Program-made: the position numbers and the translations under genes
Notes under the pieces: model-generated
The model's input: the letters and a program-made list of their open reading frames with translations, nothing else
Database searches by the model: none
Told to the model about the DNA's origin: nothing
Assembly: GCA_035761085.1 (NCBI GenBank)
Contig: DASTRT010000089.1
Coordinates: forward strand, 1-25,223
DNA from: Methylophilaceae bacterium
GTDB taxonomy: Bacteria > Pseudomonadota > Gammaproteobacteria > Burkholderiales > Methylophilaceae
Direction: 5' to 3'
DNA length: 25,223 nt
Part shown: positions 7,418 through 23,822 of the stretch, piece after piece
Numbering within the stretch: the first letter of the stretch is position 1
Layout: each line of letters opens with the position of its first letter

Positions 7418-8167
7418 TTACACAGTAGCGGCGGCTTTTTTCTTGCGCAGGCGGCTACCCAGACCAGCAATGCCGACCATCATCATGGCCATGGTGGTTG
7501 GTTCAGGAACCGGTGCGGCAAGATGCGCAGTGCTACTGGCCAGTGTGACATTGGCCTGGCCAAGCACATCGACGTAGAGCGCGTCAGTGGTGATCGCGCA
7601 GTCGAAGCTCGAGCAGGCGGAAGTCTGGCGATTGGCGATGACTTCAATGCCTGCCAGATTCAGCAGGGTCTGGTTGGGAGCGCCGGTGATCGTGATGCCA
7701 TTCAAGCCGGACAGCAGCCCGAAACCTGTCAGATTGACGATGGAAGAATTGCCCGTTGCGGAAAAGCTGCCCGCATCGCCAGTGACACTCGAGTTGGAAG
7801 AAATGACGTCAAACGACAGGCCCATCAGGTGGTTCAGCGCAAAGTCGACGTCCAGGATGGAGGCTGAGGAAGAGGCTTCCTTCGGGCCAGGGCTGCCATC
7901 CACGTTGCTGAATGCGCTGCTGTTAAGTGCCCCGACATGCAAGGGGCCCGCTGAGACATCCAGGATGGAGTCGGAATCGGAGCCGCTGCCGCTGACGGAT
8001 GAATAAGGCAGAGGCCCGATGACAGGTGAGCCCAGGATATCGCCCTGGACCGCATAGGCGCTGGCATCGCCCTGGGTTACGGTAGCGTTGGCGGGCAATG
8101 CAGTACCCAGGCCTAGCGTCAGTGCGACGCCGGAAAGGCCGTAGAGGAAAGTTCTTAACTTCTTCAT
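7418..8167 (-). CDS. PEP-CTERM sorting-domain exoprotein (Ser/Gly-rich body, possibly choice-of-anchor P-like)
   Basis: Signal peptide ending PANA; C-terminal VPEP, a hydrophobic helix and a basic tail RLRKKK. GGGAG RBS. Confidence 0.9.
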   Translation of the reverse strand: MKKLRTFLYGLSGVALTLGLGTALPANATVTQGDASAYAVQGDILGSPVIGPLPYSSVSGSGSDSDSILDVSAGPLHVGALNSSAFSNVDGSPGPKEASSSASILDVDFALNHLMGLSFDVISSNSSVTGDAGSFSATGNSSIVNLTGFGLLSGLNGITITGAPNQTLLNLAGIEVIANRQTSACSSFDCAITTDALYVDVLGQANVTLASSTAHLAAPVPEPTTMAMMMVGIAGLGSRLRKKKAAATV

Positions 8168-8415: not shown

Positions 8416-8898
8416 ATGAAACTGGAAACCTGGGAACTGCTGAGCTACATCGTCACCGTATTCGGCCTGCCGCTGGCCATCGTCTCTTTCATCCTCGAGC
8501 AGCGCAAGGAGCGCGAGAACGAGGAGGAAGAGGTCTACCAGATGCTGTCCGATGCCTATACCGACTTCCTCAAGCTGGTAATCGACAACCCCGACCTCAA
8601 GTTGCGCTCGCAGTGCCAGATCAATGGCCTCAACGGCGAGCAGCAGGAACGCATCCACGTACTGTTCGAAATCCTCATTTCGCTGTTCGAGCGCGCCTAC
8701 CTGCTGGCCTACGACGAAAACATGAAGGGCAAACAGCTGAGGCGCTGGCGCTCGTGGGAGGACTACATGCGCGAATGGTGCGAACGGCCGGATTTCCGCG
8801 ACCTGCTGCCGCGCCTGCTGCACGGCGAGGACCCGGATTTTGCCGCCTACATCCGGCGGCTGGCGGAAGAAGTGGCGCCGGCTAGAGCCGGTGCATGA
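8416..8898 (+). CDS. Hypothetical single-pass membrane protein (160 aa)
   Basis: GGAG RBS before the ATG at 8416; N-terminal TM segment (LLSYIVTVFGLPLAIVSFIL), then an acidic/helical domain. Codon usage matches host genes. Confidence 0.8.
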   Translation: MKLETWELLSYIVTVFGLPLAIVSFILEQRKERENEEEEVYQMLSDAYTDFLKLVIDNPDLKLRSQCQINGLNGEQQERIHVLFEILISLFERAYLLAYDENMKGKQLRRWRSWEDYMREWCERPDFRDLLPRLLHGEDPDFAAYIRRLAEEVAPARAGA

Positions 8899-11464
8899 AG
8901 GCCGTCAACGGCAGCGGCTCGGAGAACAGGAAACCCTGGCCGTAGTCGCAGCCGGCTTCCACCAGCACTTCATGCTGCTCCTGGGTTTCGATGCCTTCCG
9001 CCACCACCTTGAGGTCCAGCTCGTGTGCCATGGCGATGATGGAGCGCGCAATGGCGCTGCTGCTCGGGTTGGTGTTGATGTCGCGGATGAAGGACTGATC
9101 GATCTTCAGGTAATCGATATCGAACTCCTTGAGATAAGCCATGGAGGAGTAGCCGGTGCCGAAGTCGTCAATCGCCACCTGGATGCCGGCATCGCGATAC
9201 TGCAGCAGCGTGTCGATCACCTTGGGCGTGGCATCCACCAGCATGCCTTCGGTAATCTCCACGGAAATGGAGTTCTTCTCCACGCCGCGGTTCCTTAGAT
9301 AGTCCGCCCAGTTGAGTTCGTCGCCCATGCCCTGGAATTGCATTGCCGAGCGATTGACGCTGATTTCGAAGCCGGTGCCGGATTGCCGGCTGAGTTCCAG
9401 GGAAGCCCACACCGCTTCCTTGAACACCCAGTCGCCGATCTCGTTGATGATGCCGGACTCTTCTGCGAGCGGGATGAACCTGTCCGGGTTGATGTTGCCC
9501 ATACGCGGATGGTGCCAGCGCAGCAGCGCCTCGGCCTTGCTGATCTTGCCCGTGGCCAGCTCGATGATCGGCTGGTAGACCACCTGGAACTGCCTGTAGG
9601 CCAAAGCCTCCTTGAGCTCGCCGATCAGCTTGAGACGCGCATAGGCTTCGTCCTGCATGGACCTGGTAAAGTAACTGAACTGGTTGCGCCCCGACTTCTT
9701 GGCGTTATACATGGCCTGGTCGGCATTGCGAATCAGCGCTTCCGCAGTCGGCGCGTCGGTCGGATAAAGCGTGATGCCGATGCTGGCTGAAATGCTGGCC
9801 TGCTCTTCGCGCAGCGTGAAGCCGGCAGTCAATGTTCCCAACAGCTTGTTGGCGACCTCTTCCACATGCAGCTTTTCCTCGAAATCGGTCAGGATCACGG
9901 TGAATTCGTCGCCGCCCAGGCGCGCCACCGTATCCGAAGCCCGCACGCAGCTCTGTATGCGGCGTGCCGCCTCGATCAGCAACAGGTCGCCGGTATCGTG
10001 TCCCCACAGGTCGTTGACTTCCTTGAAGCGATCCAGATCGATGAACAGCAGTGCAACGCACTGGCCGAAGCGGTCAGCCTTTTTCATCTCCTGCTCAAGC
10101 CGATCGCGGAACAGCCGGCGGTTGGGCAGATCGGTCAGGTTATCGTAATTGGCCTCGTACCAGATCTTCTGCTCGATGGACTTGCTCTCGGTGATATCGG
10201 TGACCGTACCCACCATGCGGCTGGGTACGCCATTTTCATCTAGCTCTACCACGGCGCCGCGTGCCAATACCCAGACCCACGCGCCGGACTTGGTCATTAC
10301 GCGGTATTCACAGGCGTAGGTCTTGGTCTTGCCCTCCAGGTGAAGATCCAAACGTGCCATCAGTTGCGGCAAGTCCTCCGGGTGGACCAAGCGCTGCCAT
10401 TCGTCTTCGTGAATGAAGGAAGAGTTGTCTTCGTAACCCAGCGTAGTCGCCCAGGGATAGGGGTAGTAAATCTCGCCGCTCGCGAGGTCCCAATCCCACA
10501 CGCCGTTACCCGTGGCTTCGAGCGCCAGTTTCCAGCGCTCGTCGTGACGGCGCAGGTCATCCTCGATACGCTTGGTATCGGTAATGTCCAGACCCTGCCC
10601 GCAGATGCCGATGATGCGGCCCTCCCGGTCGCGGATGGGCTCATACACCAGGTCCATGTAGCGCAATTCCAGCGGTCCGTCTTTCGTACGCCGCAGGAAA
10701 ATGGGCGCCCCCTTGTTGACGTAGGGCTTACCGGTGCGGAACACCTCGTCGTGCAGCTCAAAAAAGCCCTGCGGCGCCACTTCGGGAAAGGTGTCGCGTA
10801 TGGGTTTGCCAATTACGTCACGACGTCCGACCAAAGCATAGAAGGCTTCATTTGCCTGCTCCATGACGTGCTCGGGACCATGCGTGAAGTAGACGAAGCC
10901 GGGGGAACGGTCGAACAAATGCCGCAAGCGGTCGCGCTCCTCACTGAGCGCCTTGTTGAGTTCCTGCACCGCCTGGGCGCGAGTGAAGACGTTGGCTTCC
11001 AGGTTTGAATCTGCACCGGAGTCCTGGTCATAGGCCTTGAGCCGCTTCCGCGCGTTGACCAGCTCGGTGACATCGATAGTGGAATGCGAAATGCAAAGCA
11101 GCTCGCCCTGGGCGTCAAAGATGGGCGTACTGACTGCGCTCCAGTAACGCTCCTCGAAATAGGGCTCGCCTTGTTCCGGGTAGACCTTGATGGGGTAACG
11201 CTGGAAAGGCAGCGCATCGGCCTTGCGCGTTTCCACTGCTCGCTCGAGGGACGCCTGCAGCACCCTGATCCCATTGTCTTCACTATCGGTAGGGTCAGCT
11301 GCGAATACGTCGAACAGGTGATAGCCGACCAGCTGCTCGCGCTTGCGCCCTGAAGCCTTGAGAAAGGCTTCATTGACATCGAGGATGACGAGTTCCGGCG
11401 ATAGCAGATAGCTACCAATGGAAGAGTTGTCGAATACGGACTTGTAGACAGCAGGCGGAAGCAT
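8882..11464 (-). CDS. Cytoplasmic multi-PAS diguanylate cyclase/phosphodiesterase (PAS x3-GGDEF-EAL)
   Basis: PAS/PAC repeats (GNGVWDWD...VHPED), YDNLTDLPNR, RASD..RLGGDEF, KAEALLRW, IDDFGTGYSS and VVAEGIET. Confidence 0.95.
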   Translation of the reverse strand: MLPPAVYKSVFDNSSIGSYLLSPELVILDVNEAFLKASGRKREQLVGYHLFDVFAADPTDSEDNGIRVLQASLERAVETRKADALPFQRYPIKVYPEQGEPYFEERYWSAVSTPIFDAQGELLCISHSTIDVTELVNARKRLKAYDQDSGADSNLEANVFTRAQAVQELNKALSEERDRLRHLFDRSPGFVYFTHGPEHVMEQANEAFYALVGRRDVIGKPIRDTFPEVAPQGFFELHDEVFRTGKPYVNKGAPIFLRRTKDGPLELRYMDLVYEPIRDREGRIIGICGQGLDITDTKRIEDDLRRHDERWKLALEATGNGVWDWDLASGEIYYPYPWATTLGYEDNSSFIHEDEWQRLVHPEDLPQLMARLDLHLEGKTKTYACEYRVMTKSGAWVWVLARGAVVELDENGVPSRMVGTVTDITESKSIEQKIWYEANYDNLTDLPNRRLFRDRLEQEMKKADRFGQCVALLFIDLDRFKEVNDLWGHDTGDLLLIEAARRIQSCVRASDTVARLGGDEFTVILTDFEEKLHVEEVANKLLGTLTAGFTLREEQASISASIGITLYPTDAPTAEALIRNADQAMYNAKKSGRNQFSYFTRSMQDEAYARLKLIGELKEALAYRQFQVVYQPIIELATGKISKAEALLRWHHPRMGNINPDRFIPLAEESGIINEIGDWVFKEAVWASLELSRQSGTGFEISVNRSAMQFQGMGDELNWADYLRNRGVEKNSISVEITEGMLVDATPKVIDTLLQYRDAGIQVAIDDFGTGYSSMAYLKEFDIDYLKIDQSFIRDINTNPSSSAIARSIIAMAHELDLKVVAEGIETQEQHEVLVEAGCDYGQGFLFSEPLPLTAFMHRL

Positions 11465-12017: not shown

Positions 12018-12884
12018 TTAGCGCGTGACCGCCACCTTGTAACCGGCCTTGCGCAAACGCCCAAGAATGCCGTCAGCGCCTGCCAAATGAGCGGCACCTA
12101 CGGCGACAAACAGCCGGGAGGAAGCCGCTCTTTCGGCGATACGTTTCGCCATCACGGCATTGCGCTCGTCGATCAACCTTGTGCGGATCTTCTGCCATAG
12201 CGCGGGCGGCAATTCGTTACTGGTGGTCTTCTCATCGATGCGTGCAATGTCATCCGCATTGCCCGCCACGTAAGCCTTTAGCAGGGCTTCGTAATCGTGC
12301 GTCTTTTCTTCGGGGCTGTGGTCGAGCACGGTACGCAGAATAGTGAGCTGCTCGGCACGACTCAAGCTATCGAGCATGGTGAAGTGCGCAGCCGGGTCTT
12401 CCAGCCCCTCTACACTCTTGCCCAACTCGCCTGCCTTGGCGTAAAGCAGCACATCCTGCGTCAGTGGCGATTGCGGTTCAGGCAGGTCGAACAACATGGC
12501 CAGCAGCCAGGGCTTCATGTGCAGCAGGGTGTCCTCGTGCATGGCGTGCTGCTCCGCGAGCTGGCGCGCCTTTTCCCACATGTCGTCGGAAAGCTCGGCG
12601 CGCAGGTTGTAGTCCTTGAGAAAATACAGGGAGGGATCGGAAGGCGGAAGCGTTTCCATCATAAAAACCTCGCTGCCCTCCAGCGCCTTGAGCACGGCGG
12701 GTGAAAATTGTGTAACGCGCGGATCGTCCACATGAATGGTGCCGAAGAGGTGGCTGACGGTGCCATTGGGTGAAGTGACCTTCCACAACAGACCGGTCTC
12801 GGCAGCCTGAGGTGCCGACAGAAAGCCCATCAGGGCGAGCGCCGCCAGGCCGCGCCAGAGATTCAGAAAATTGGATGAGCGCAT
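12018..12884 (-). CDS. TraB/GumN (Tiki-like) family periplasmic protein
   Basis: Signal peptide, LLWKV...HLFGTIH, LIDERN..MA and LFVAVGAAHL motifs. Confidence 0.9.
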   Translation of the reverse strand: MRSSNFLNLWRGLAALALMGFLSAPQAAETGLLWKVTSPNGTVSHLFGTIHVDDPRVTQFSPAVLKALEGSEVFMMETLPPSDPSLYFLKDYNLRAELSDDMWEKARQLAEQHAMHEDTLLHMKPWLLAMLFDLPEPQSPLTQDVLLYAKAGELGKSVEGLEDPAAHFTMLDSLSRAEQLTILRTVLDHSPEEKTHDYEALLKAYVAGNADDIARIDEKTTSNELPPALWQKIRTRLIDERNAVMAKRIAERAASSRLFVAVGAAHLAGADGILGRLRKAGYKVAVTR

Positions 12885-12964: not shown

Positions 12965-13972
12965 CTAACGGCGGTAGAACGACTGGTACCAGTCCACAAA
13001 ACGTGCGATGCCGGTCTCGATGGAGGTTGCGGGCTTGAAGCCGACATCTCGCATGAGGTCATCGACATCGGCAAACGTCGCCGGTACATCGCCAGGCTGC
13101 ATGGGCAGGTAATTCTTCACCGCAGGCTTGCCCAGATTTTGCTCCAGCAGCGAGATCAGCTGCATCAGCGGCACCGGCGCGCTATTGCCGATGTTGTAGA
13201 TCTTGTAAGGCGCGCGCGAACTGCCGGGATCGGGATGGTCTCCACTCCAATGCGGGTTTCCTTGCGGCACGCGGTCGAGCACGCGCAACACGCCCTCGAC
13301 GATGTCGTCGATGTAGGTGAAATCGCGCTGCATCTCGCCGTGGTTGAACACATCAATTGGGCGCCCTTCCATGATCGCCTTGGCGAAAAGGAAATACGCC
13401 ATGTCCGGGCGCCCCCATGGACCGTAGACGGTGAAGAAGCGCAGCCCGGTGACCGGCAGCCGGTAGAGATGGCTGTAGCTATGCGCCATCAGCTCATTGG
13501 CCTTCTTGGTGGCGGCGTACAGACTCAGCGGATGGTCGACATTGTCGTGTACCGAGAAGGGCATCTTGCTGTTGGCGCCGTAGACCGAGCTCGACGAGGC
13601 AAAGACCAGATGCTCGACCTCATTATGGCGGCAGCCTTCCAGAATGTTGAGAAACCCCTGTAGGTTGGAATCTGCATAAGCTTGCGGATTAACCAGCGAA
13701 TAGCGCACGCCGGCCTGCGCCGCAAGATGGACGACGCGTTGCGGACGATGCTCGGCAAACAGGCGCTGCATGGTTTCGCGGTCATGCACATCGGCACGGA
13801 TATTGGTAAACAGGGGACGATCCTTGATCCGGGCCAGGCGAGCCTCTTTCAGGCGCACATCGTAATAATCGTTGAGGTTATCCACGCCGATGACGGTATC
13901 GCCGCGTTCCAGCAGGCGCTGTGCGAGGAAATTGCCGATAAATCCGGCAGTGCCGGTAACAAGTATTTTCAT
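12965..13972 (-). CDS. NAD-dependent epimerase, UDP-glucuronate 4-epimerase type (LpsL/WbnF/CapI-like)
   Basis: [48 protein letters not shown] and [10 protein letters not shown]. The start is the ATG at 13972. Confidence 0.9.
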
Positions 13973-13988
13973 TAGCGGAACGTTTCCA

Positions 13989-15431
13989 TCAGCTTGTGCC
14001 CTGGGCCGCAGGGCATGCAGTGCCAAGACCGTACACCGTCAGGGCTTTACGCGATTTCAGGTAAGGGTTGAATTCCACGATCGTACAATTTACAGAAAGC
14101 GCAGGCGCCGCTTTCGCGTCATGTTCCACCAGCAGGTAAGCCGAGGTTCCGCGTTTCGAGAGCTGCTGCAACGCCGCATCGTCCAACAGCGGAATATTCT
14201 GACCGGCGTAATACAGAAGCCGTTCGTCCAGATGTCGATAGCCATACAGCGGCAATTCGCGATGTGCCTGGTGCCAGGTCTGGAATCCCTGCAAGGCGAC
14301 ATAACGATAATCGAACACCCGCGCTTCAGCCACGGCATAGAAGGCACCATATCCGGCGAGAAGCAGAAAGCTCAGGGCCATGAGCACGCGTTGCCAGCGC
14401 GCTTGCACCGCTTCACACACTTCGGCCAGCCGCTTGCCGAGCAGGATGGCAATCCAGGGATAAGTAGGCAGCAGGTACTTGGCATGCTTGTCACTGAAAA
14501 GCGTGTACAGCACGAACGGCAGTGCAATCGCCAGCACCACAGGCAGCAGTGTTGTGGACGCCTGCCGCCATCTGCGCCAGGTCGCCACGGGAGCCACAAA
14601 CAACAGCAGACTGGCCGGGAAAAAGTCCGACAGATACCACAGGAAATAATTGTAGAAGGGCTCTCCGGCATGCCCGTACATCTTGGCCAGCATGTCGTGC
14701 CGCACGGTGGTGCGCCAAATGTCCATGCCCTCCTGCCAGGTCACGGCGAAAAACCACGATCCGCCGACTGCCACAAATATCAGCCAGCCGAGCGGGTCGC
14801 GCAGTGCCTGCCAGGTCCGCGTATCACGACGGAAGAATGCCAGCACCAGCAACGGCAGCGTGACAAAAATCAGCACCAGCGGACCCTTGGTCAACACCCC
14901 CAGGCCCAGCAGGAAATAGCTCAGCCACAGCCAATAACGCCTGCCCTCCTCCAGCACGTAATGCAGCGCCGCCAGCAGCGAGGCGAAGCACAGGGTGGCA
15001 AGCAGCATCTCGATCTCGGCACGCCGGGCGAACAGGGCAAAGCTGGCATTGGCCAGCAGCAACTGCAAGGTAAACAGGGCCGCCCAAATGCCAAAGTGGC
15101 GATGCGCGAAGCGGTAGGCGAGTATGGCAGTCACCGCTGCCGCCATCGCTGAAGGCAGACGCAGCGTCCATTCATTGACCGAGCCGGCCACCAGCGAGGC
15201 GCTGGCTTCCAGCCAGTAGAACAGCGGAGGTTTGGTCAGGTAGAGCTCGCCATTGAGACGCGGCAGCAACCAGTCACCGCTAGTGAACATGGAAGCGGTG
15301 GACAGTGCACGACGCGCCTCATTGTAGGAAAGCAAGGGGATGCTGCCCAGCCCCCATAGCAGCAGGATGGCGGCTAACAGCACGCTGGCGACGAGAAGGA
15401 TGCGGTAGGTTTTCAACTGCTCAGTGGGCAT
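13989..15431 (-). CDS. ArnT/GT83-like (GT-C fold) polyprenyl-phosphate-sugar transferase, paralog 1
   Basis: Polytopic membrane protein with [41 protein letters not shown] and KYLLPTYP. Confidence 0.88.
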
Positions 15432-16404
15432 GGGTTTGTTTCAAGCAGCTTTCTACCCCGGAAGTGCAATTTCTGTCCATATGGAATGCAGCCTGCAGAT
15501 GGTCGCCGGAATCCAGGTAGCTGATGTTGACACCGGCCGCATCCAGCGCAACTCGCACAAACCCATGCTCGGCAGCCGAAAATCGCAGGTCGGAAGCTCC
15601 CGTTTTCACGGCATAGAGCTTCCCTCCGCCGCCACCGCTGACGACATGAATGGGCTCGCCCTCGCGCACAATCAACTGCTGGTTGTGGTCATGCGCAGCA
15701 ATATAAAGATCGACATTGGCGGCCTGCATGGCAGAGATCAAGGGATTGTTTGCGCCCTCGCCTTCCTGATGGTGCTTGCCGTAAGTGCGGATAGCGTGGT
15801 GAGCGATCACGATTTTCCAGATAGGGTGATTGCCCTGTGAAAACTGTTGCTTGAGATATTCGGCCTCGCCACGGGGATCCTGATTGGTATCGAGAAACAC
15901 GATCTGCACCAAAGGCTGCCCGTTCACGCGGCCGAAAACCTCACTGTAATGCCGTCCCGGCATGCGCCAGCGGTTGGAGCCCAGGTGACGGCTGGCATAA
16001 TCCAACTCGGCTTGTACCGAACCCGGGTAATCGTGGTTGCCCAATACGGCGTAAAAGGGAATGGCATCGAGATATTTACCCGTGTACATGTGCTCGAATG
16101 CACGCATCCAGGCTGACGACTCCGTGGTCATATTGTCTTCGATATAGAAGTTGTCGCCCAGCAGCACGGTGAAATCCAGCCCGCCATCCTTTTGCGCCTG
16201 CGTCTCCATGGCGCCGGCCACCGCTCTCTGTTCGCTATTCGCCTTGCCCTGGTCACCGAGCGCGTAGAACGTAATGTGCGTGGTTTCATCAGGAGAGGAA
16301 GGAATGCGCGGCAGGTAATCATTGAAGCCGCGATAAAAGCCAAGGGCCACGATGACCAGCAAGGCCGGCAGGATAAGTTTGACGAGGCGGGATTTTTTCA
16401 GCAT
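15421..16404 (-). CDS. Membrane-anchored/exported calcineurin-like metallophosphoesterase, purple acid phosphatase type
   Basis: N-terminal hydrophobic helix. All five PAP-type motifs are present: GDQG, GDNFY, GNHD, VIAHH and AHDH (variant of GHxH). Confidence 0.88.
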   Translation of the reverse strand: MLKKSRLVKLILPALLVIVALGFYRGFNDYLPRIPSSPDETTHITFYALGDQGKANSEQRAVAGAMETQAQKDGGLDFTVLLGDNFYIEDNMTTESSAWMRAFEHMYTGKYLDAIPFYAVLGNHDYPGSVQAELDYASRHLGSNRWRMPGRHYSEVFGRVNGQPLVQIVFLDTNQDPRGEAEYLKQQFSQGNHPIWKIVIAHHAIRTYGKHHQEGEGANNPLISAMQAANVDLYIAAHDHNQQLIVREGEPIHVVSGGGGGKLYAVKTGASDLRFSAAEHGFVRVALDAAGVNISYLDSGDHLQAAFHMDRNCTSGVESCLKQTHAH

Positions 16405-16419
16405 AGCGTCATCATTGGC

Positions 16420-18150
16420 CTAATGCCCGGAGGTTAACGGCCTGCTGCCGGGGCGACCGCAATTGGCAGGGTGAGCGCTGCACCAGGTTTCCCACTGCGC
16501 GTTATCGACCACACCTACCTGCATCTTCAGGTAATCCTGCAGAAACTCCAGATCGAGGCCGTCCAGTGGGTTCTTGCGGTTGAAATAGATCACCGCCCGA
16601 CCTTCCGGATGCTCGGCGAACCATTGAGAAAGATGCGGTCGGTCCAGCACTTGCGGCGATTGCTGCAGACGGCCGATGAAATCGTAGATACCGGGGTACG
16701 GACCAGCATGCGCCAGCGGTACGCCGATCTGCTCCAGATGCTCGAGATGATGGGCAATAGGCCGCACATCATAGGCCGTACCCGCAGCGCGAATAACGCC
16801 CAGATGAATGACTCCAGCCAGCAGCATGCTGACCAGCGCCAGCGCCCACAGCTTGGCCTGCAACCGGTTACGGAAACCGAACCACAGGCCCGCACTGCCT
16901 GCAATCAGAAGCAAAGGTGTCCAGGTAGGGATATGCACGACCCAGGCCGTGGCCGGATGGTCTTCTACCCATGCAGGAGGATGCAGCAGCAGGATGGCGA
17001 GTCCAACGATCACCAGCAGTACCGGCAGACCCTGTCGATGCTGCACCTTCGGCGTTTCTTGCAGCACACGGGCGGCAAGTAAAGCAAATGCCGGCAGCAG
17101 CGGCAGCAGATAATGGATCTGCTTGCCGCTGACCAGTGAAAACAGTACAAACGTCGACCCCAGCCAGCTCAGGCAAAACCGCGTGCCTTCATCCAGACCG
17201 TTTTTGCGCATGCTGACGGCAGCTTTCCAAAGCGCCCCCCACAGCAGCCACGGGAAGAACAGGATGGGCAGCAGCGGCAGATACCACCAGACCTCGCGCT
17301 GGTGCGCAAAGGCGTTCACCAGGCGATGGGCGCTCTGTCCCCATAGAATCGCCTGTGCGTAGTGCTCACCGCCATGCAGTGCGGCCGGGATCGCCCACAA
17401 CAGGGCGAGCGAAATACCGATAGCCGAAGCAGCGCCCGCACCGGCATACCAATAGCGCCAGTTCATGGCCCTGCTGCGCAACCACCAGGGTGCCAGCAGC
17501 ATGGCCGGCAGCACATGCAGGAATATGGCCGGGCCTTTGGCCAGCAGGCCGCCGGCAATGGCCATGGCAAACAAGGCCCAACCGGCTCGGATGCGATCTT
17601 GCATGGCCATAACGAGACCCAGCATGCCGAGCAGCGTAAACAAGGCCAGCAGCATGTCGAACATGACGGCAGTTCCGAGTGCCGCCCACAAGGCGGTGCC
17701 GGAGAGCATCAATGCCGCGTGCATCGGGGTTTGTTGCAGCTGCGGCCACAGGCGGCGAGCCAGCAGCATGATAAGCCAGGCATTTCCCAAAGCGACGAGA
17801 CAGGTCAGCAGGCGCGGCCACCAGTCACTGACGCCGAAGACGCTCCACCCCAGATTGATCAGCCAGAACAGCAAGGGCGGTTTGTCGCTGTAGGGCATGC
17901 CATTGAGCATGGGCACCAGGAAATCGCCGCTGAGATGCATGTTCCAGGCGACGGTCACGTAGCGCGTTTCGTCCACCGGGATAAAGGAGCGGCCGAACAG
18001 CTCAATCAAGGCGAGCAGCAGCCAGATCGAAGCCAGAACCAGGAATTGCCAGTTGAACAGGCGTTGCGATTGGATGCCGGCAAATGTTCTGCCGCCGAGG
18101 ACGGCGGGTTCGGATATGACGTGCGGCTTGGTTAGCGTGTTAGCTGCCAT
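16420..18150 (-). CDS. ArnT/GT83-like polyprenyl-phosphate-sugar transferase, paralog 2
   Basis: PVDETRY, PMLNGMPYSDKPPLLFW, VMFDMLL, LAKGP and SGKQIHYLLPL motifs; many TM helices. Confidence 0.9.
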   Translation of the reverse strand: MAANTLTKPHVISEPAVLGGRTFAGIQSQRLFNWQFLVLASIWLLLALIELFGRSFIPVDETRYVTVAWNMHLSGDFLVPMLNGMPYSDKPPLLFWLINLGWSVFGVSDWWPRLLTCLVALGNAWLIMLLARRLWPQLQQTPMHAALMLSGTALWAALGTAVMFDMLLALFTLLGMLGLVMAMQDRIRAGWALFAMAIAGGLLAKGPAIFLHVLPAMLLAPWWLRSRAMNWRYWYAGAGAASAIGISLALLWAIPAALHGGEHYAQAILWGQSAHRLVNAFAHQREVWWYLPLLPILFFPWLLWGALWKAAVSMRKNGLDEGTRFCLSWLGSTFVLFSLVSGKQIHYLLPLLPAFALLAARVLQETPKVQHRQGLPVLLVIVGLAILLLHPPAWVEDHPATAWVVHIPTWTPLLLIAGSAGLWFGFRNRLQAKLWALALVSMLLAGVIHLGVIRAAGTAYDVRPIAHHLEHLEQIGVPLAHAGPYPGIYDFIGRLQQSPQVLDRPHLSQWFAEHPEGRAVIYFNRKNPLDGLDLEFLQDYLKMQVGVVDNAQWETWCSAHPANCGRPGSRPLTSGH

Positions 18151-18505
18151 GTTCCAGCATTTCCGTTGTACGACGGGCCTGTTCGCGCCGGATCAGCATC
18201 AGGTTGCGGGTGTAGACGATAGTGCCGGGGAGCTGCCCCAGGATGATGACCGGCTCGGCATTACGAATGCCGTAGGCCAGCACGGTGAGCCCGCCGATCA
18301 GCGACAGATACCAGAAGCTCACAGGAATGACGCTTTTCTGGTGGCGCTCGCTGTGTATCCATTGCACGATGAAGCGCATCATGAACATGGTCTGACCCAG
18401 CAGGCCAATCACCAGCCAGACGATATCCACCGAACCCAGGCCGGCGAGGTAATCCTGCCAGCGATGCGCGAGATGGTTCAGGTAAAAGATGAAACTGTGG
18501 TGCAT
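18140..18505 (-). CDS. Lipid-A-disaccharide synthase N-terminal domain (LAB_N) small membrane protein
   Basis: IGLLGQTMFMMRFIVQWIHSER...SVIPVSFWYLSLIGG...EPVIILGQ...YTRNL is the LAB_N pattern, with three TM segments. Confidence 0.88.
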   Translation of the reverse strand: MHHSFIFYLNHLAHRWQDYLAGLGSVDIVWLVIGLLGQTMFMMRFIVQWIHSERHQKSVIPVSFWYLSLIGGLTVLAYGIRNAEPVIILGQLPGTIVYTRNLMLIRREQARRTTEMLEHGS

Positions 18506-19234
18506 TTAGTCTTCCCTGACTTGTGGTTGTTTTGCGCGCCGCAGCAGCCAGGCGACGCCGAACAGGTCGACGATGCCGACCAGCAGGCGATCGATGGTGC
18601 CGTAATTGGACTTGCCACGTTCACGCGGGCGGTGGTTGACGGGTATTGAGCGGATCTTGCCGCCGCTGCGTAATACCAGCGCCGGCAGGAAGCGATGCAT
18701 GTGGTCGAAATATGGCAGATCAAGGAAAACATCGCGCCGTATCAGCTTGAGGCCGCAGCCGGTGTCAGGCGTGCTGTCCTTCAGCAGGCGGGAGCGCACG
18801 CCATTGGCGATGACGGAGGAAACGCGCTTGATCCAGCTGTCGCGCCGCGCATGGCGCCGGTTACCACCGACCATGACGACGCCCTCTTCCAGCCCGGCGA
18901 TCAGTTTGGGGATATCGGCCGGATCGTTCTGGCCGTCGCCATCCAGCGTGGCGATCCAGTCACCGCGCGCTGCCTTGACGCCGCTACGCACCGCGGTACT
19001 CTGGCCACAGCTTCTGGCGTGGTGCAGCACGCGCAACTGCGGATAGCGTGCTTTTGCCTCGAGCAGGACTTGAGCCGTGGCATCCGTACTGCCGTCGTCG
19101 ACATAGACGATCTCGTGCTGAACCACGCCTGACAATGCGGCATGAATTTCTGAAATAAGGGGTTCGATGTTGCCTTCTTCATTCCTGACAGGAACGACGA
19201 CGGAAAGCAGTGTAATGGTGGGGTTCACCGTCAT
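18506..19234 (-). CDS. GT2 polyprenol-phosphate glycosyltransferase (ArnC/RgtE/DPM1-like)
   Basis: SVVVPVRNEEGNI, YVDDGSTD, ATLDGDGQNDP, DTGCGLK and FDHMHRFLP. Its stop codon directly abuts the LAB_N ATG. Confidence 0.92.
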   Translation of the reverse strand: MTVNPTITLLSVVVPVRNEEGNIEPLISEIHAALSGVVQHEIVYVDDGSTDATAQVLLEAKARYPQLRVLHHARSCGQSTAVRSGVKAARGDWIATLDGDGQNDPADIPKLIAGLEEGVVMVGGNRRHARRDSWIKRVSSVIANGVRSRLLKDSTPDTGCGLKLIRRDVFLDLPYFDHMHRFLPALVLRSGGKIRSIPVNHRPRERGKSNYGTIDRLLVGIVDLFGVAWLLRRAKQPQVRED

Positions 19235-19310
19235 GAATGGTCAGCCTTTGTTCTGGAGCGCAATCTTCGAGCCCTGGTATTGGTGGCGGGAGCAATATTC
19301 AGGCCTATGC

Positions 19311-19326
19311 AGCACGAAACATGCCA
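19311..19326 (-). promoter_or_regulatory. Possible sigma54 -24/-12 promoter
   Basis: The minus strand reads TGGCATG-TTTC-GTGCT against consensus TGGCACG-N4-TTGCW, with GG and GC correctly spaced and two mismatches. Confidence 0.3.
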
Positions 19327-19410
19327 TGCTTGGTACGCGTTAGTACACCTGACCGAAGGACTGGCTTCTTTGATAAAGATCAAACAGTTGCGTAAAAGCA
19401 GGTGGGCAAG

Positions 19411-19444
19411 AGTCTAAAAGGCTTGCATTACAATTTGCTTACAT
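19411..19444 (-). promoter_or_regulatory. Pho-box-like direct repeat plus -10 hexamer upstream of the glycosylation operon
   Basis: The minus strand reads ATGTAAG-CAAA-TTGTAAT (19444-19427, 11-bp period), then a 10-nt spacer, then TAGACT (19416-19411). This is the geometry of PhoB-activated promoters such as phoA. Confidence 0.6.
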
Positions 19445-19521
19445 AGTGCAAATTTTGCATGCAACAGCATGCATAACCCGCAAAAGTTGCAAGTTACGCA
19501 GCAAAGGAGCAGGAAGCGGGA

Positions 19522-21797: not shown

Positions 21798-23822
21798 ATG
21801 AAGCGAAACATTTCTATCATTCAGCGCTTCCTGTTGCCTGTGGCGGTCCTGATCATTATCAGCGCGGCGATCCTCGCCGAGCGTGAGACTGCCCAACAGA
21901 TGCGCAGCATCGAGAAACAGGCGCATCGGGAGACCCAGGCGCTGCTCCGACTGCTTGACGTTACCGAATCTCTGGTCAACGACCGCGTCTACTCTTCCAT
22001 CAGCATGCTGCGCATGCAGGGCAAGCTCATCGGACAACCGTCCATCCGTGGCAAGACCTTTGTCGGCGAGCGGGAAGTCCCCAATCTTGTGCTTGGCAAG
22101 ACGCCGCAAACCTATAACTTTCAGCTGGTAGACAGTATCAGCGAGCATTTCGGCGGCACCGCCACCCTCTTCGTCAAATCCGGCAACGATTTCGTCCGCG
22201 TCTCCACCAACCTGCGCAAGAGCGACGGCGAGCGCGCCGTTGGCACAGTGCTGGACCCGGAGGGCAAGGCGCTGGCCGCGCTGCGCCAGGGCGAAACCTT
22301 TTACGGCGTGGTGGATATTCTCGGCGAGCCCTACATCACCGGCTATGAGCCCATGCGCAACAACAAGGGAGAGATCATCGGCGCCTGGTACGTGGGCTAC
22401 AAGGCAGACCTGGAAGTGCTGCGTCAGGCGGTTCAGAAGACCCGTTACCTGAAGAACGGTTTCCTGGCGCTGCAGGATTACCGGGGACAGATCCGCTTCC
22501 TCTCTGACCATATCTCGATGAAGGACGCCGAGCATCTGCTGGCGCAGAAACCCAGGGGCTGGGTGATCAGCAGCGAAGAGATTCCGCAATGGGGCTACCG
22601 GGCCGTGATTGCCTACCCCAAGAGCGAGGCCAGGCTTAGCGGCCTCAGCAATTCACTCTACCTGATCCTCATCGGCACCCTGCTCGGCATCGCGCTGATC
22701 GCCATCATCATTACCCAATTGCGTCGGCTGATCCTGCGGCCGCTGGGCGGCGACCCTGCGGTGGCGGTTGAGCTGGTGCACCGCACTTCGATGGGCGATC
22801 TCTCCAATGATGAGAATGTGCAGGCCGATATCGGCACCCTGATGGCAGATATCCTCACTATGCGCCACAACCTGCGCGTGATGGTCAACACGCTGGAAAA
22901 GAATGCCGAGCGCCTGACCCTGTCGGCCAGCGTCTTCGAATATGCGCACGAAGGCATCTTCATCATGGACCCGCAACGCCGCATCGTAGACGTCAATCCC
23001 GCCTTTTCCGAATTGACGGGCTACTCCCGCGAGGATGCCTTCGAGCGCACGCCGCAGCAGCTGGGCTTCTTCTATCAGGAGCCGGACTTTTTCGACCGCC
23101 TGTGGAACGGCGAACAGCGGAACGACGAGTGGCGCGGCGAAGCCTGGAACAAACGCAAGGACGGCGACACCTACATAGCGCGGCTGGATCTTTTCGCCGT
23201 GCGCAGCATGTCGCAGGAAATCAGCCACTACGTCGGCATCTGCTCCGACATGACGCTGCTCAAGGAACAGCAGCAACGCCTGGAACGCATGGCCTACCAC
23301 GACCCACTGACGCAGCTGCCCAACCGCACCCTGTTCTTCGATTCGCTCAAGCAGGCGCTGGCGCGCACGCGGCGCAAGGACGAACTGCTGGCGGTCTGCT
23401 ATCTGGATCTCGACAACTTCAAGCCGGTCAACGATTCCATGGGGCACAAGGCGGGCGACCAGCTGCTGATCCAAATGGCAGAGCGCATTCGCAGCTCATT
23501 GCGGGCACATGACATCGTGGCACGGCTGGGCGGCGACGAGTTTGCCCTGCTGTTGAGCGGCCTGGAATCGCCCGCTGAAGTTGAGCACACGCTGGCCCGC
23601 CTATTGACCAGCATCAGCGCGCCTTATGAGCTGAACGGCAGGACCATTATGGTGGCCGCCAGCATCGGCTACACGATTTATCCCGAGGATGATGTGGAAC
23701 TCGACGAACTGCTGCAACACGCCGACAAGGCCATGTACCGCTCCAAGCTAAACGGCGGCAACAACTACCACCGTTACGATGCCATGGATGATAACCTGGT
23801 GCGCATGGTGAAAGACGCGTGA
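21798..23822 (+). CDS. Membrane diguanylate cyclase: Cache (Cache_3-Cache_2-like) sensor, HAMP-like linker, PAS, GGDEF
   Basis: Two TM helices flank ATLFVKSGNDFVRVSTNL...GTVLD...GEPYITGYEP...IIGAWYVG. These are followed by PAS, YHDPLTQLPNR and RAHD-x5-GGDEF (I-site intact). Confidence 0.93.
   Translation: MKRNISIIQRFLLPVAVLIIISAAILAERETAQQMRSIEKQAHRETQALLRLLDVTESLVNDRVYSSISMLRMQGKLIGQPSIRGKTFVGEREVPNLVLGKTPQTYNFQLVDSISEHFGGTATLFVKSGNDFVRVSTNLRKSDGERAVGTVLDPEGKALAALRQGETFYGVVDILGEPYITGYEPMRNNKGEIIGAWYVGYKADLEVLRQAVQKTRYLKNGFLALQDYRGQIRFLSDHISMKDAEHLLAQKPRGWVISSEEIPQWGYRAVIAYPKSEARLSGLSNSLYLILIGTLLGIALIAIIITQLRRLILRPLGGDPAVAVELVHRTSMGDLSNDENVQADIGTLMADILTMRHNLRVMVNTLEKNAERLTLSASVFEYAHEGIFIMDPQRRIVDVNPAFSELTGYSREDAFERTPQQLGFFYQEPDFFDRLWNGEQRNDEWRGEAWNKRKDGDTYIARLDLFAVRSMSQEISHYVGICSDMTLLKEQQQRLERMAYHDPLTQLPNRTLFFDSLKQALARTRRKDELLAVCYLDLDNFKPVNDSMGHKAGDQLLIQMAERIRSSLRAHDIVARLGGDEFALLLSGLESPAEVEHTLARLLTSISAPYELNGRTIMVAASIGYTIYPEDDVELDELLQHADKAMYRSKLNGGNNYHRYDAMDDNLVRMVKDA

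Follow-up and report, generated by a model that had tools for sequence, protein, structure and literature searches.

Replacement of lipid A phosphate by galacturonic acid (GalA) is known from rhizobia, Aquifex and Caulobacter, and in several of these the phosphatases are unconfirmed. In Rhizobium leguminosarum and Mesorhizobium loti the pathway comprises LpsL, RgtE, RgtA-D, RgtF and LpxE/LpxF (PMC7663294, PMC9393093), RgtD and RgtF acting once LpxF and LpxE have taken off phosphate (PMC9393093). Pathways of the rhizobial type have also been predicted in Aquifex, Caulobacter and Oligotropha. Aquifex carries homologs of rgtD, rgtE and rgtF and lacks lpxE and lpxF (PMC7663294); in Caulobacter the non-PAP2, tyrosine-phosphatase-like CtpA is used, a homolog proposed to dephosphorylate lipid A ahead of the transfer of GalA (PMC9393093). 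These two cases indicate that the literature leaves room for other types of phosphatase. We analysed a 25,223-nucleotide stretch of DNA, hereafter the window (contig DASTRT010000089.1 of assembly GCA_035761085.1, a Methylophilaceae bacterium), which carries a six-gene operon. The reading that we favour, and consider reasonably likely, is that the operon encodes an inducible pathway that adds a uronic acid, likeliest GalA, to lipopolysaccharide (LPS; lipid A and/or inner core) and removes phosphate.

By gene content, the operon follows the same logic as the rhizobial pathway: a probable UDP-glucuronic acid (UDP-GlcA) 4-epimerase, a family 2 glycosyltransferase (GT2) that would load GalA on a polyprenyl phosphate, periplasmic transferases resembling ArnT, and a phosphatase by which the acceptor position would be freed. 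It differs from that pathway in that its phosphatase is of the purple acid type instead of PAP2, its GT2 is devoid of membrane helices and paired with a small membrane protein of the LAB_N family, and all genes lie in one operon with a sigma-54-type promoter, in a betaproteobacterial methylotroph. In function it would be a counterpart of the Rgt/LpxE/LpxF pathway, from which it departs in three respects: the phosphatase is not homologous, the proposed synthase is divided between GT2 and LAB_N, and the sigma-54 region is conserved. An earlier note on this DNA had drawn the analogy with rhizobia; it stands as a functional one only, because the metallophosphoesterase of the operon (MPE), of the Metallophos/purple-acid type, is not homologous to the PAP2 enzymes LpxE and LpxF. 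The broader proposal of that note, a polyprenyl-phosphate uronic acid pathway with two ArnT-family transferases and a phosphatase, finds support in gene families and synteny.

The six genes are minus-strand open reading frames (ORFs) at window positions 12965-19234, with junctions of 0, -11, +15, -11 and +16 bp (Table 1). The coupling and junction sizes described earlier were borne out by the ORF coordinates, and comparison with Pfam, NCBIfam and the PDB assigned a family to every ORF. The source is a 2.0-Mb metagenome-assembled genome (MAG) in 402 contigs, 95% complete; below, L-numbers denote the loci compared, G-numbers the Methylophilaceae genomes compared and C-numbers contigs of the MAG itself. 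The identical six-gene order occurs in two more metagenomic lineages, L100/L101 and, as far as its contig extends, L152. It looks like a merger of a GT2-LAB_N-ArnT1 trio found family-wide with an MPE-ArnT2-epimerase module. Gene families, junctions, active-site residues, synteny and promoter motifs are what we observed; what we say below on substrates, acceptor, sugar and inducing signal is inferred from them.

Table 1. Features of the operon, its control region and the adjoining gene, in window coordinates.
Feature	Position	Strand	Size	Details
TraB/PrgY/GumN-family gene	12018..12884	-		PF01963, E 7e-50; starts 80 bp downstream of the operon
SDR epimerase, probable UDP-glucuronate 4-epimerase	12965..13972	-	335 aa	ATG at 13972 (MKILVTG); E 4.8e-146 versus 5u4q
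ArnT-family GT-C transferase type 2 (ArnT2)	13989..15431	-	480 aa	PMT_2/PMT; 5ezm, E 1e-16
Membrane-anchored purple-acid-phosphatase-type metallophosphoesterase (MPE)	15421..16404	-	327 aa	PF00149
ArnT-family GT-C transferase type 1 (ArnT1)	16420..18150	-	576 aa	PMT_2; ArnT 5ezm, E 5e-15
LAB_N small membrane protein	18140..18505	-	121 aa	PF07578, E 1e-31
GT2, ArnC/GtrB/DPMS-type polyprenyl-phosphate glycosyltransferase	18506..19234	-	242 aa	PF00535, E 5e-31
Sigma-54-type promoter	19311..19326	-		TGGCATGTTTCGTGCT (-24 GG / -12 GC); ~66 nt before the GT2 start codon
Integration host factor (IHF)-like site	19378..19390	+		GATCAAACAGTTG; read from the sequence; between the palindromes and the sigma-54 element
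-10-like hexamer	19411..19416	-		TAGACT; 10 nt past the Pho-like box; TACACT in L100
Pho-box-like direct repeat	19427..19444	-		ATGTAAG-CAAA-TTGTAAT; 8.7 bits on the family Pho-box matrix
Upstream palindrome 2	19447..19459			TGCAAAATTTGCA, perfect; centre ~-153 relative to the predicted sigma-54 start
Upstream palindrome 1, candidate activator site	19479..19491			TGCAACTTTTGCG (minus-strand reading); centre ~-185

Among solved structures, the GT2 matched ArnC (9hwj, cryo-EM; E 1e-30), GtrB (E 3e-20) and DPMS (E 1e-17). The alignment to ArnC is confined to residues 7-219 of 322, the two C-terminal membrane helices of ArnC, GtrB and DPMS being absent from the GT2 (242 versus 322 residues), and the ArnC score of 115 bits compares with an equivalog cut-off of 529. 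The LAB_N gene starts one base past the GT2 stop codon, and in every cluster examined it directly follows a GT2 gene. We read three hydrophobic segments in its product. No solved structural relative of LAB_N was found, and an atlas search returned LAB_N clusters only, the neighbouring clusters faintly co-hitting MtN3/PQ-loop families. We propose that the GT2 is an undecaprenyl-phosphate (Und-P)-GalA synthase, and LAB_N its membrane subunit and/or a flippase.

The neighbours of the pair suggest which sugar it handles. GT2-LAB_N was found in 14 of 40 Methylophilaceae genomes (GT2 69-80% identical), with ArnT1-type genes in G007, G012, G030, G064 and Novimethylophilus, with ArnT2-type genes in G004, G009 and G063, directly with dehydrogenase and epimerase genes in G003, G005 and G018, and with an epimerase gene alone in G002 and G034. 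In G013 the pair is accompanied by genes of the ArnT2 and UDP-glucose-dehydrogenase types and by an epimerase gene, in G019 by an ArnT2-type gene and an epimerase gene only. In Methylotenera and Methylophilus, the genes form the string eptA-EamA-ugd-epimerase-MPE-ArnT2-GT2-LAB_N; two cultured strains, Methylotenera mobilis 13 and Methylotenera sp. N17, are among the carriers of the homologous cluster. Linkage of the GT2 to epimerase or transferase genes, like that of RgtE, is seen in the window and in at least eight family genomes. The repeated joining of GT2-LAB_N to ugd (UDP-glucose 6-dehydrogenase) and epimerase genes is our main argument that the donor would be a polyprenyl-phosphate uronic acid, most simply GalA, and GT2-LAB_N probably makes polyprenyl-phosphate galacturonate. 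Since the MAG holds a single GT2-LAB_N pair, both ArnT-like enzymes should draw on one donor.

The epimerase is ~66% identical, by our count on the printed alignment, to the Klebsiella pneumoniae protein 5u4q, which we take to be Uge. Its second-best structure was the Bacillus cereus epimerase 6zl6 (E 2e-49), presumably a UDP-GlcA 4-epimerase; the SSS...YxxxK block is conserved, as are the Thr and Arg that we take to bind the carboxylate in the B. cereus enzyme. Orthologs (61-80% identity) adjoin a gene for a 441-449-residue dehydrogenase of the general nucleotide-sugar type in family genomes, and the Methylotenera ortholog has as its neighbour a Ugd of the E. coli type, which scores 663 bits on PRK15057.

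For both ArnT1 and ArnT2, the sole solved structure matched was ArnT (5ezm). Both carry the first-periplasmic-loop motif of the ArnT family (GT-C, GT83-like), (D/N)E-x-R...Y-x-x-K-P-x4-W (DETRYV...YSDKPPLLFW in ArnT1, NEARRA...YLTKP in ArnT2), and their TKG and SxK..Y..P blocks align with 5ezm, the K and Y equivalents of the Und-P site being kept; the roles of these residues we assume to be those described with that structure. E38, R40, K67, K315 and Y319 of ArnT2 were invariant among 22 homologs. Many family genomes have an ArnT1 ortholog (47-51% identity) within a GT2-LAB_N-ArnT1 trio, and the MPE-ArnT2 order is kept in Methylotenera, Methylophilus, Methylobacillus and Azonexus loci.

In the 4-amino-4-deoxy-L-arabinose (Ara4N) pathway (E. 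coli, Salmonella and Cupriavidus metallidurans, the source of 5ezm), ArnC and ArnT are homologous to the GT2 and to both GT-C enzymes of the operon. However, ArnT adds a cationic sugar onto phosphate, and the Ara4N genes are wanting here. The operon has no arnB, arnD, arnE or arnF, and no ArnA above cut-off was found in the genome, the best match (161 versus 777 bits) covering the formyltransferase part only; the ArnT1/ArnT2 pair reached 118 and 59.6 bits on the ArnT model PRK13279, whose cut-off is 567, so neither is ArnT proper. The pathway is therefore not that of Ara4N, as the earlier note had already argued. Bordetella LgmABCD and Francisella FlmF/FlmK likewise pair an ArnC-like with an ArnT-like enzyme and have small accessory membrane proteins; these systems modify lipid A phosphates and are under a two-component regulator (PMC4993483). 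Unlike the operon, they add glucosamine or galactosamine to phosphate and need a deacetylase, in place of which the operon has an epimerase and a phosphatase.

That phosphatase has a positively charged N-terminus followed by one hydrophobic helix, a membrane anchor; among solved structures, mammalian purple acid phosphatases came closest to it (E 4e-17). It presents the motif set GDQG / GDNFY / GNHD / AHH / AHDHN, corresponding to the five motifs of purple acid phosphatases (GDxG, GDxxY, GNH(D/E), VxxH, GHxH) with their seven metal ligands. In an alignment of 31 homologs six of the seven ligands were invariant and the seventh (H203) nearly so: D51, D84, Y87, N123, H202, H238 and H240 did not vary, H124 and H203 hardly, the VxxH ligand being H202 or H203. 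A C-terminal pair of Cys residues was also invariant. The protein matches PF00149 only and not PAP2, and the LpxE/LpxF signature (KxxxxxxRP / PSGH / SRxxxxxHxxxD) is missing. Judged by these features, MPE is a periplasm-facing, membrane-tethered enzyme of the purple acid type and not a PAP2 protein; we propose that it is an LPS (lipid A or core) phosphatase. With the purple acid phosphatases, such as tartrate-resistant acid phosphatase type 5 (1qhw, 1war, 1ute), it shares the five-motif, seven-ligand site including the GDxxY tyrosine; it differs from them in being bacterial, N-terminally membrane-anchored, periplasmic and genetically tied to ArnT, eptA and PAP2 genes. Caulobacter CtpA offers a precedent for a non-PAP2 enzyme in this position, but as a tyrosine-phosphatase-type protein it has a fold unrelated to that of MPE. 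To our knowledge, none of the known lipid A phosphatases in GalA pathways is a metallophosphoesterase, and a literature search on LAB_N, metallophosphoesterase lipid A phosphatases and the ArnT motif found nothing relevant.

MPE homologs are numerous (~2200 in the protein collection, 504 loci among GTDB species representatives) and rare in the family itself, where 1 of 36 sampled genera had one. Counted over the best 80 of the 504 loci, which are beta- and gammaproteobacterial, an ArnT-family ORF lay within 500 bp of the MPE gene in 41, from Methylophilaceae to Pseudomonas. The two genes are co-directional and nearly abutting in Methylotenera, Methylophilus, Methylobacillus and Azonexus. In many Pseudomonas, divergent pairs prevail; on one Pseudomonas MAG contig (L046:8378-13641), the divergent pair is present in two tandem copies. 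In the window the ArnT2 gene overlaps the end of the MPE gene by 11 nt. ArnT puts its sugar onto phosphate and requires no phosphatase, and RgtD and RgtF act once a phosphatase has done so; an MPE gene overlapping an ArnT-type gene thus fits a scheme of dephosphorylation followed by glycosylation.

The acceptor is suggested by a further neighbour, the phosphoethanolamine (pEtN) transferase gene eptA. It lies beside the MPE-ArnT2 module in two distinct arrangements (L001, L004, L022-L026), and an ArnT1-type gene follows eptA after 2 nt in L153 (3787-7085) and L154 (3547-6845). The latter pair sits at the queG/tsaE/amiC locus, which in other Methylophilaceae carries GT2-LAB_N-ArnT1. Moreover, in a Methylotenera MAG (L039:9899-12622) MPE is fused to a DUF3413-sulfatase protein resembling YejM and pEtN transferases (907 aa); a PAP2 gene and a second sulfatase-fold gene follow, and a palindrome with a sigma-54-like element lies in front. 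The adjacency of eptA to both ArnT types and the L039 fusion favour LPS as the acceptor.

All together, these data suggest the following scheme. The epimerase would turn UDP-GlcA into UDP-GalA, and the truncated GT2 of ArnC type, tethered to the membrane through its constant partner LAB_N, would load GalA on undecaprenyl phosphate at the cytoplasmic face. The lipid-linked sugar would then be flipped, LAB_N being the only candidate for this step encoded in the operon. At the periplasmic face, the membrane-anchored MPE may take phosphate off an LPS precursor, the translationally coupled ArnT2 placing GalA at or near the dephosphorylated position, and ArnT1, of the type widespread in the family, may add GalA at a second site. 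Transcription would start from an activator-dependent promoter. Its best supported part is a sigma-54 element, to which two palindromic sites farther upstream and a bend at the IHF-like site would contribute; just upstream of it, a PhoB-type promoter, a weak one, may add a phosphate input.

Several observations weigh against this scheme. One is that no ugd was found in the operon or in the 95%-complete MAG, where the sole nucleotide-sugar dehydrogenase found is TviB-like, of the UDP-GlcNAc 6-dehydrogenase type; contrary to the earlier claim, the operon is not self-contained. Either ugd is unassembled, which the 402 contigs of the MAG would allow, or the sugar differs. It could then be N-acetylgalacturonic acid (GalNAcA), made from UDP-GlcNAcA, or another 4-epimer, as the TviB-like enzyme and the score of the epimerase on TviC would suggest; yet the dehydrogenases that adjoin the epimerase orthologs are of the general type and, in Methylotenera, of the E. 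coli Ugd type, and with the presumed carboxylate-binding residues kept and the assembly so fragmented we regard a sugar other than GalA as improbable. Furthermore, ArnT2-type orthologs occur in five family genomes where no MPE was found (G004, G009, G013, G019 and G063), so that the phosphatase is accessory, not obligatory, for the ArnT2 clade. Finally, only about one in two MPE homologs has an ArnT gene beside it, and the contexts of the others are heterogeneous. Unrelated neighbours of this sort, along with names such as acid phosphatase given to some homologs, would suit an operon acting outside LPS, in which the ArnT-like enzymes modify periplasmic glucans, exopolysaccharide or proteins and MPE trims a phosphorylated glycan or scavenges phosphate. 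The PMT_2/GT-C family does include protein mannosyltransferases, and the sulfatase-fold partners of MPE in L032 and L039 could be glucan-modifying enzymes like OpgB or OpgE. Nevertheless, the exclusive structural match to ArnT with its first-loop motif, the presence of eptA in several arrangements, and an 11-nt overlap with an ArnT gene within one operon, unexpected for a generic scavenger, make such an acceptor unlikely in our view, and we retain LPS.

We also compared the control region of the operon. The sequence has -24/-12 spacing with palindromes 100-200 bp upstream, and the genome encodes rpoN and at least seven enhancer-binding proteins. The two palindromes, 13 bp each, are 32 bp apart. 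The exact form TGCAAA-N-TTTGCA occurs once in the genome, as palindrome 2, and the strict pattern TGCAA[AC]-N-[TG]TTGC[AG] at four loci in 2.0 Mb, two of them the operon palindromes and the other two in coding regions; a broader pattern gave 7 plus-strand matches versus 3.5 expected, and the relaxed matches inspected elsewhere (C32, C125) fall in coding sequence. A relaxed sigma-54 pattern matched the genome 23 times on both strands. The IHF-like site may be compared with the IHF consensus, WATCAANNNNTTR; its aligned counterpart in L100 reads TATCAATGCGTTG. No sigma-70 consensus promoter was found before the operon. For this reason, and since the promoter elements present are of the activator-dependent type, the operon appears inducible, as had been claimed.

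This architecture is shared by related clusters. The sigma-54 element is kept in L100/L101 (TGGCATGTTCCGTGCT), L004 and L022; L027, L001, L025 and L039 match it more loosely. Palindrome 1 is kept in L100/L101, and palindrome 2 recurs before MPE/eptA clusters of Methylotenera, Methylophilus and Methylobacillus loci. In L004, L022 and L027 the palindromes, paired at the same 32-bp spacing, and then a -24/-12 element precede the GT2 gene; the same arrangement precedes eptA in L001, L025 and L026 (with one site in L023) and MPE in L039. It was absent from 14 GT2-LAB_N clusters that have no MPE and from two trio loci. It would therefore be the phosphatase-containing versions that are regulated, and the conserved control would be sigma-54-dependent.

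As to the inducing signal, the sigma-54 element and paired palindromes, being the feature kept across lineages, would suit a remodelling of outer-membrane charge and stability under envelope, metal or cationic-peptide stress, for which the switch would be a sigma-54 activator of a two-component system instead of phosphate; this would parallel the PmrAB/ColRS-type control of arn and eptA. We give this reading close to an even chance, falling a little short of it. Related clusters lie near eptA, a CpxP/ZraP-like gene, RND metal-efflux genes and two-component systems of the OmpR and NtrC types, and a dCache kinase together with an activator 59-63% identical to the enhancer-binding protein encoded on C176 adjoins MPE in L032 and L039. 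However, GalA retains a negative charge, so that only a modest gain in protection from cationic agents would be expected. The C176-type protein, which we considered as the cognate activator, was rejected: family genomes devoid of MPE commonly carry orthologs of it, with no palindrome near them. That the search for a cognate activator yielded none also counts against the scheme that we favour.

Two of these clusters deserve separate description. In a proteobacterial MAG (L032:6053-13766), genes for a dCache histidine kinase and an NtrC-type activator (59% identical to that of C176), a sigma-54-like promoter and an MPE gene follow each other, and the string continues with a palindrome (TGCAAATTTTGCA), a sulfatase-fold protein and PAP2. 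In two Methylophilaceae MAGs (L004:3880-6586 and L022), a GT2-LAB_N-MPE-ArnT2 cluster comes directly after genes for an OmpR-type regulator and kinase, which are divergent from a CpxP/ZraP-like gene and a resistance-nodulation-division (RND) efflux system; the spacer before GT2 nonetheless holds the palindrome pair and the sigma-54 element.

The Pho-box-like promoter reported in the earlier note is present. We scored it on a matrix derived from 16 Methylophilaceae boxes that precede pstS or phoB; the top sites that this matrix gave in the genome precede pstS and phoB (22-31 bits for pstS/phoB across the family), a PAP2 pair (19.5 bits), a porin gene (18.2) and ppk (12.5). PhoB is encoded, and the site shares the 7-4-7 layout and the 10-nt gap to the -10 hexamer with the MAG's own pstS box (TAGTCAT-AAAA-CTGTCAT, 10 nt, TATGAT) and phoB box (TCGTCAT-CAAT-ATGTCAT, 10 nt, TATAGT). 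Its score ranks 71st among 4.0 million genome positions (p ~1.8e-5 per position), and ~0.01 sites of such score are expected by chance in the 287-bp operon spacer; 48 of the 71 genome sites scoring at least as high lie in coding sequence, 23 between genes. In the survey of Pho-box conservation that the note had suggested, the orthologous promoter of L100/L101 showed TTGTAAC-AGGA-TTGTCAT (12.4 bits) in the same position between unconserved spacers, but the more distant clusters gave little. No site was found before L001, L004, L023-L028, L102 or L103, and scanning of all related GT2 or eptA promoters yielded weak sites in L022 (7.8 bits), G013 (11.1) and G019 (9.5). Conservation of the site, in one independent comparison, lends modest support.

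The same enzymology may accordingly be read as a phosphate-starvation response under PhoB, in which LPS phosphate is recovered and the negative charge kept, a reading that we hold possible, on the doubtful side. What speaks for it is the identical geometry before TAGACT, the better box of L100 in the same position despite diverged spacers, the low chance expectation for the spacer, and the existence of TGTAAT/TGTAAC half-sites in genuine boxes (pstS of G036 and G064, and the MAG's own ppk); the organism also appears to remodel its envelope under Pho control, the third-best box of the genome preceding PAP2 and monoglucosyl-diacylglycerol-synthase-like genes. Yet the site lies 13-22 bits below the proven type, and its half-sites lack the C of GTCAT, which in the 16 training boxes is missing from just two half-sites (TGTAAT, in pstS of G036 and G064). 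A single independent orthologous promoter was available for comparison, most sites of equal or better score fall in coding sequence, and other OmpR-family regulators, of which the genome has three more, likewise bind 11-bp direct repeats. Moreover, the Methylotenera module belongs to the same gene string as eptA, whose product spends phosphate in adding a phosphate-containing group; that the module generally serves to spare phosphate is therefore less likely. With one weak site in its favour, the phosphate-sparing purpose under PhoB that had been assigned to the operon finds weak support, and the conserved control elements speak for a sigma-54 activator no less strongly than for phosphate starvation.

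The box of 19.5 bits (TCTTCATTAATCTGTCAT) lies on contig C135 (L147:2-2140), 42 nt before a gene for a 186-residue PAP2 protein; ~535 bp downstream of that gene is one for a GT4 enzyme best matching alpha-monoglucosyl-diacylglycerol synthase. The two genes probably represent a classical Pho-regulated phospholipid-to-glycolipid swap. The MAG has no other PAP2 gene, and we considered whether this one could supply the LpxE that ArnT1 would need; it was set aside, half of a Pho-regulated PAP2 and glycosyl-diacylglycerol synthase pair being the more likely role. The MAG's own pstS is split over contig ends by an assembly break, its 5' part and Pho box on C242 and its 3' part on C111 beside pstB and ppk.

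A YgiQ-type radical SAM gene lies upstream of the operon and the GumN-family gene, then a PAS-GGDEF-EAL gene, downstream. The GumN-family gene is possibly co-transcribed with the operon: no terminator-like site was found in the 80-bp gap. It would lie outside the conserved cluster, as no homologue was found in related clusters. Two large PAS-GGDEF(-EAL) signalling genes flank the region (8882-11464, minus strand, and 21798-23822, plus strand), and a 249-residue protein with a PEP-CTERM sorting motif is encoded at 7418-8167 (minus strand). No two-component system genes were found within the window, and Rfam and tRNA scans of it gave no matches.

A purple-acid-type phosphatase in a module of this kind is a new element among the enzymes considered here, and the genetic coupling of MPE and ArnT genes across Methylophilaceae, Rhodocyclaceae and many Pseudomonas makes it a candidate for the missing enzyme class of GalA pathways. 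We tentatively extend this to a wider proposal: the MPE family (~500 GTDB loci) might form a new class of non-PAP2 periplasmic LPS phosphatases that work with ArnT-like transferases and are sometimes fused to a pEtN-transferase-like protein, GT2 and LAB_N might form a split polyprenyl-phosphate sugar synthase, LAB_N being its membrane subunit or a SemiSWEET-like flippase, and, in this lineage, inputs from a sigma-54 activator and PhoB might be integrated at one promoter. The operon also provides a first functional context for the LAB_N domain. The phosphate-starvation reading, if true, would parallel the well-known phospholipid-to-glycolipid swap, for which the MAG seems to have genes as well. 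Binding of polymyxin and of metals and recognition by innate immunity depend on the phosphates of lipid A, and a new route of phosphate removal would therefore matter for envelope biology in general.

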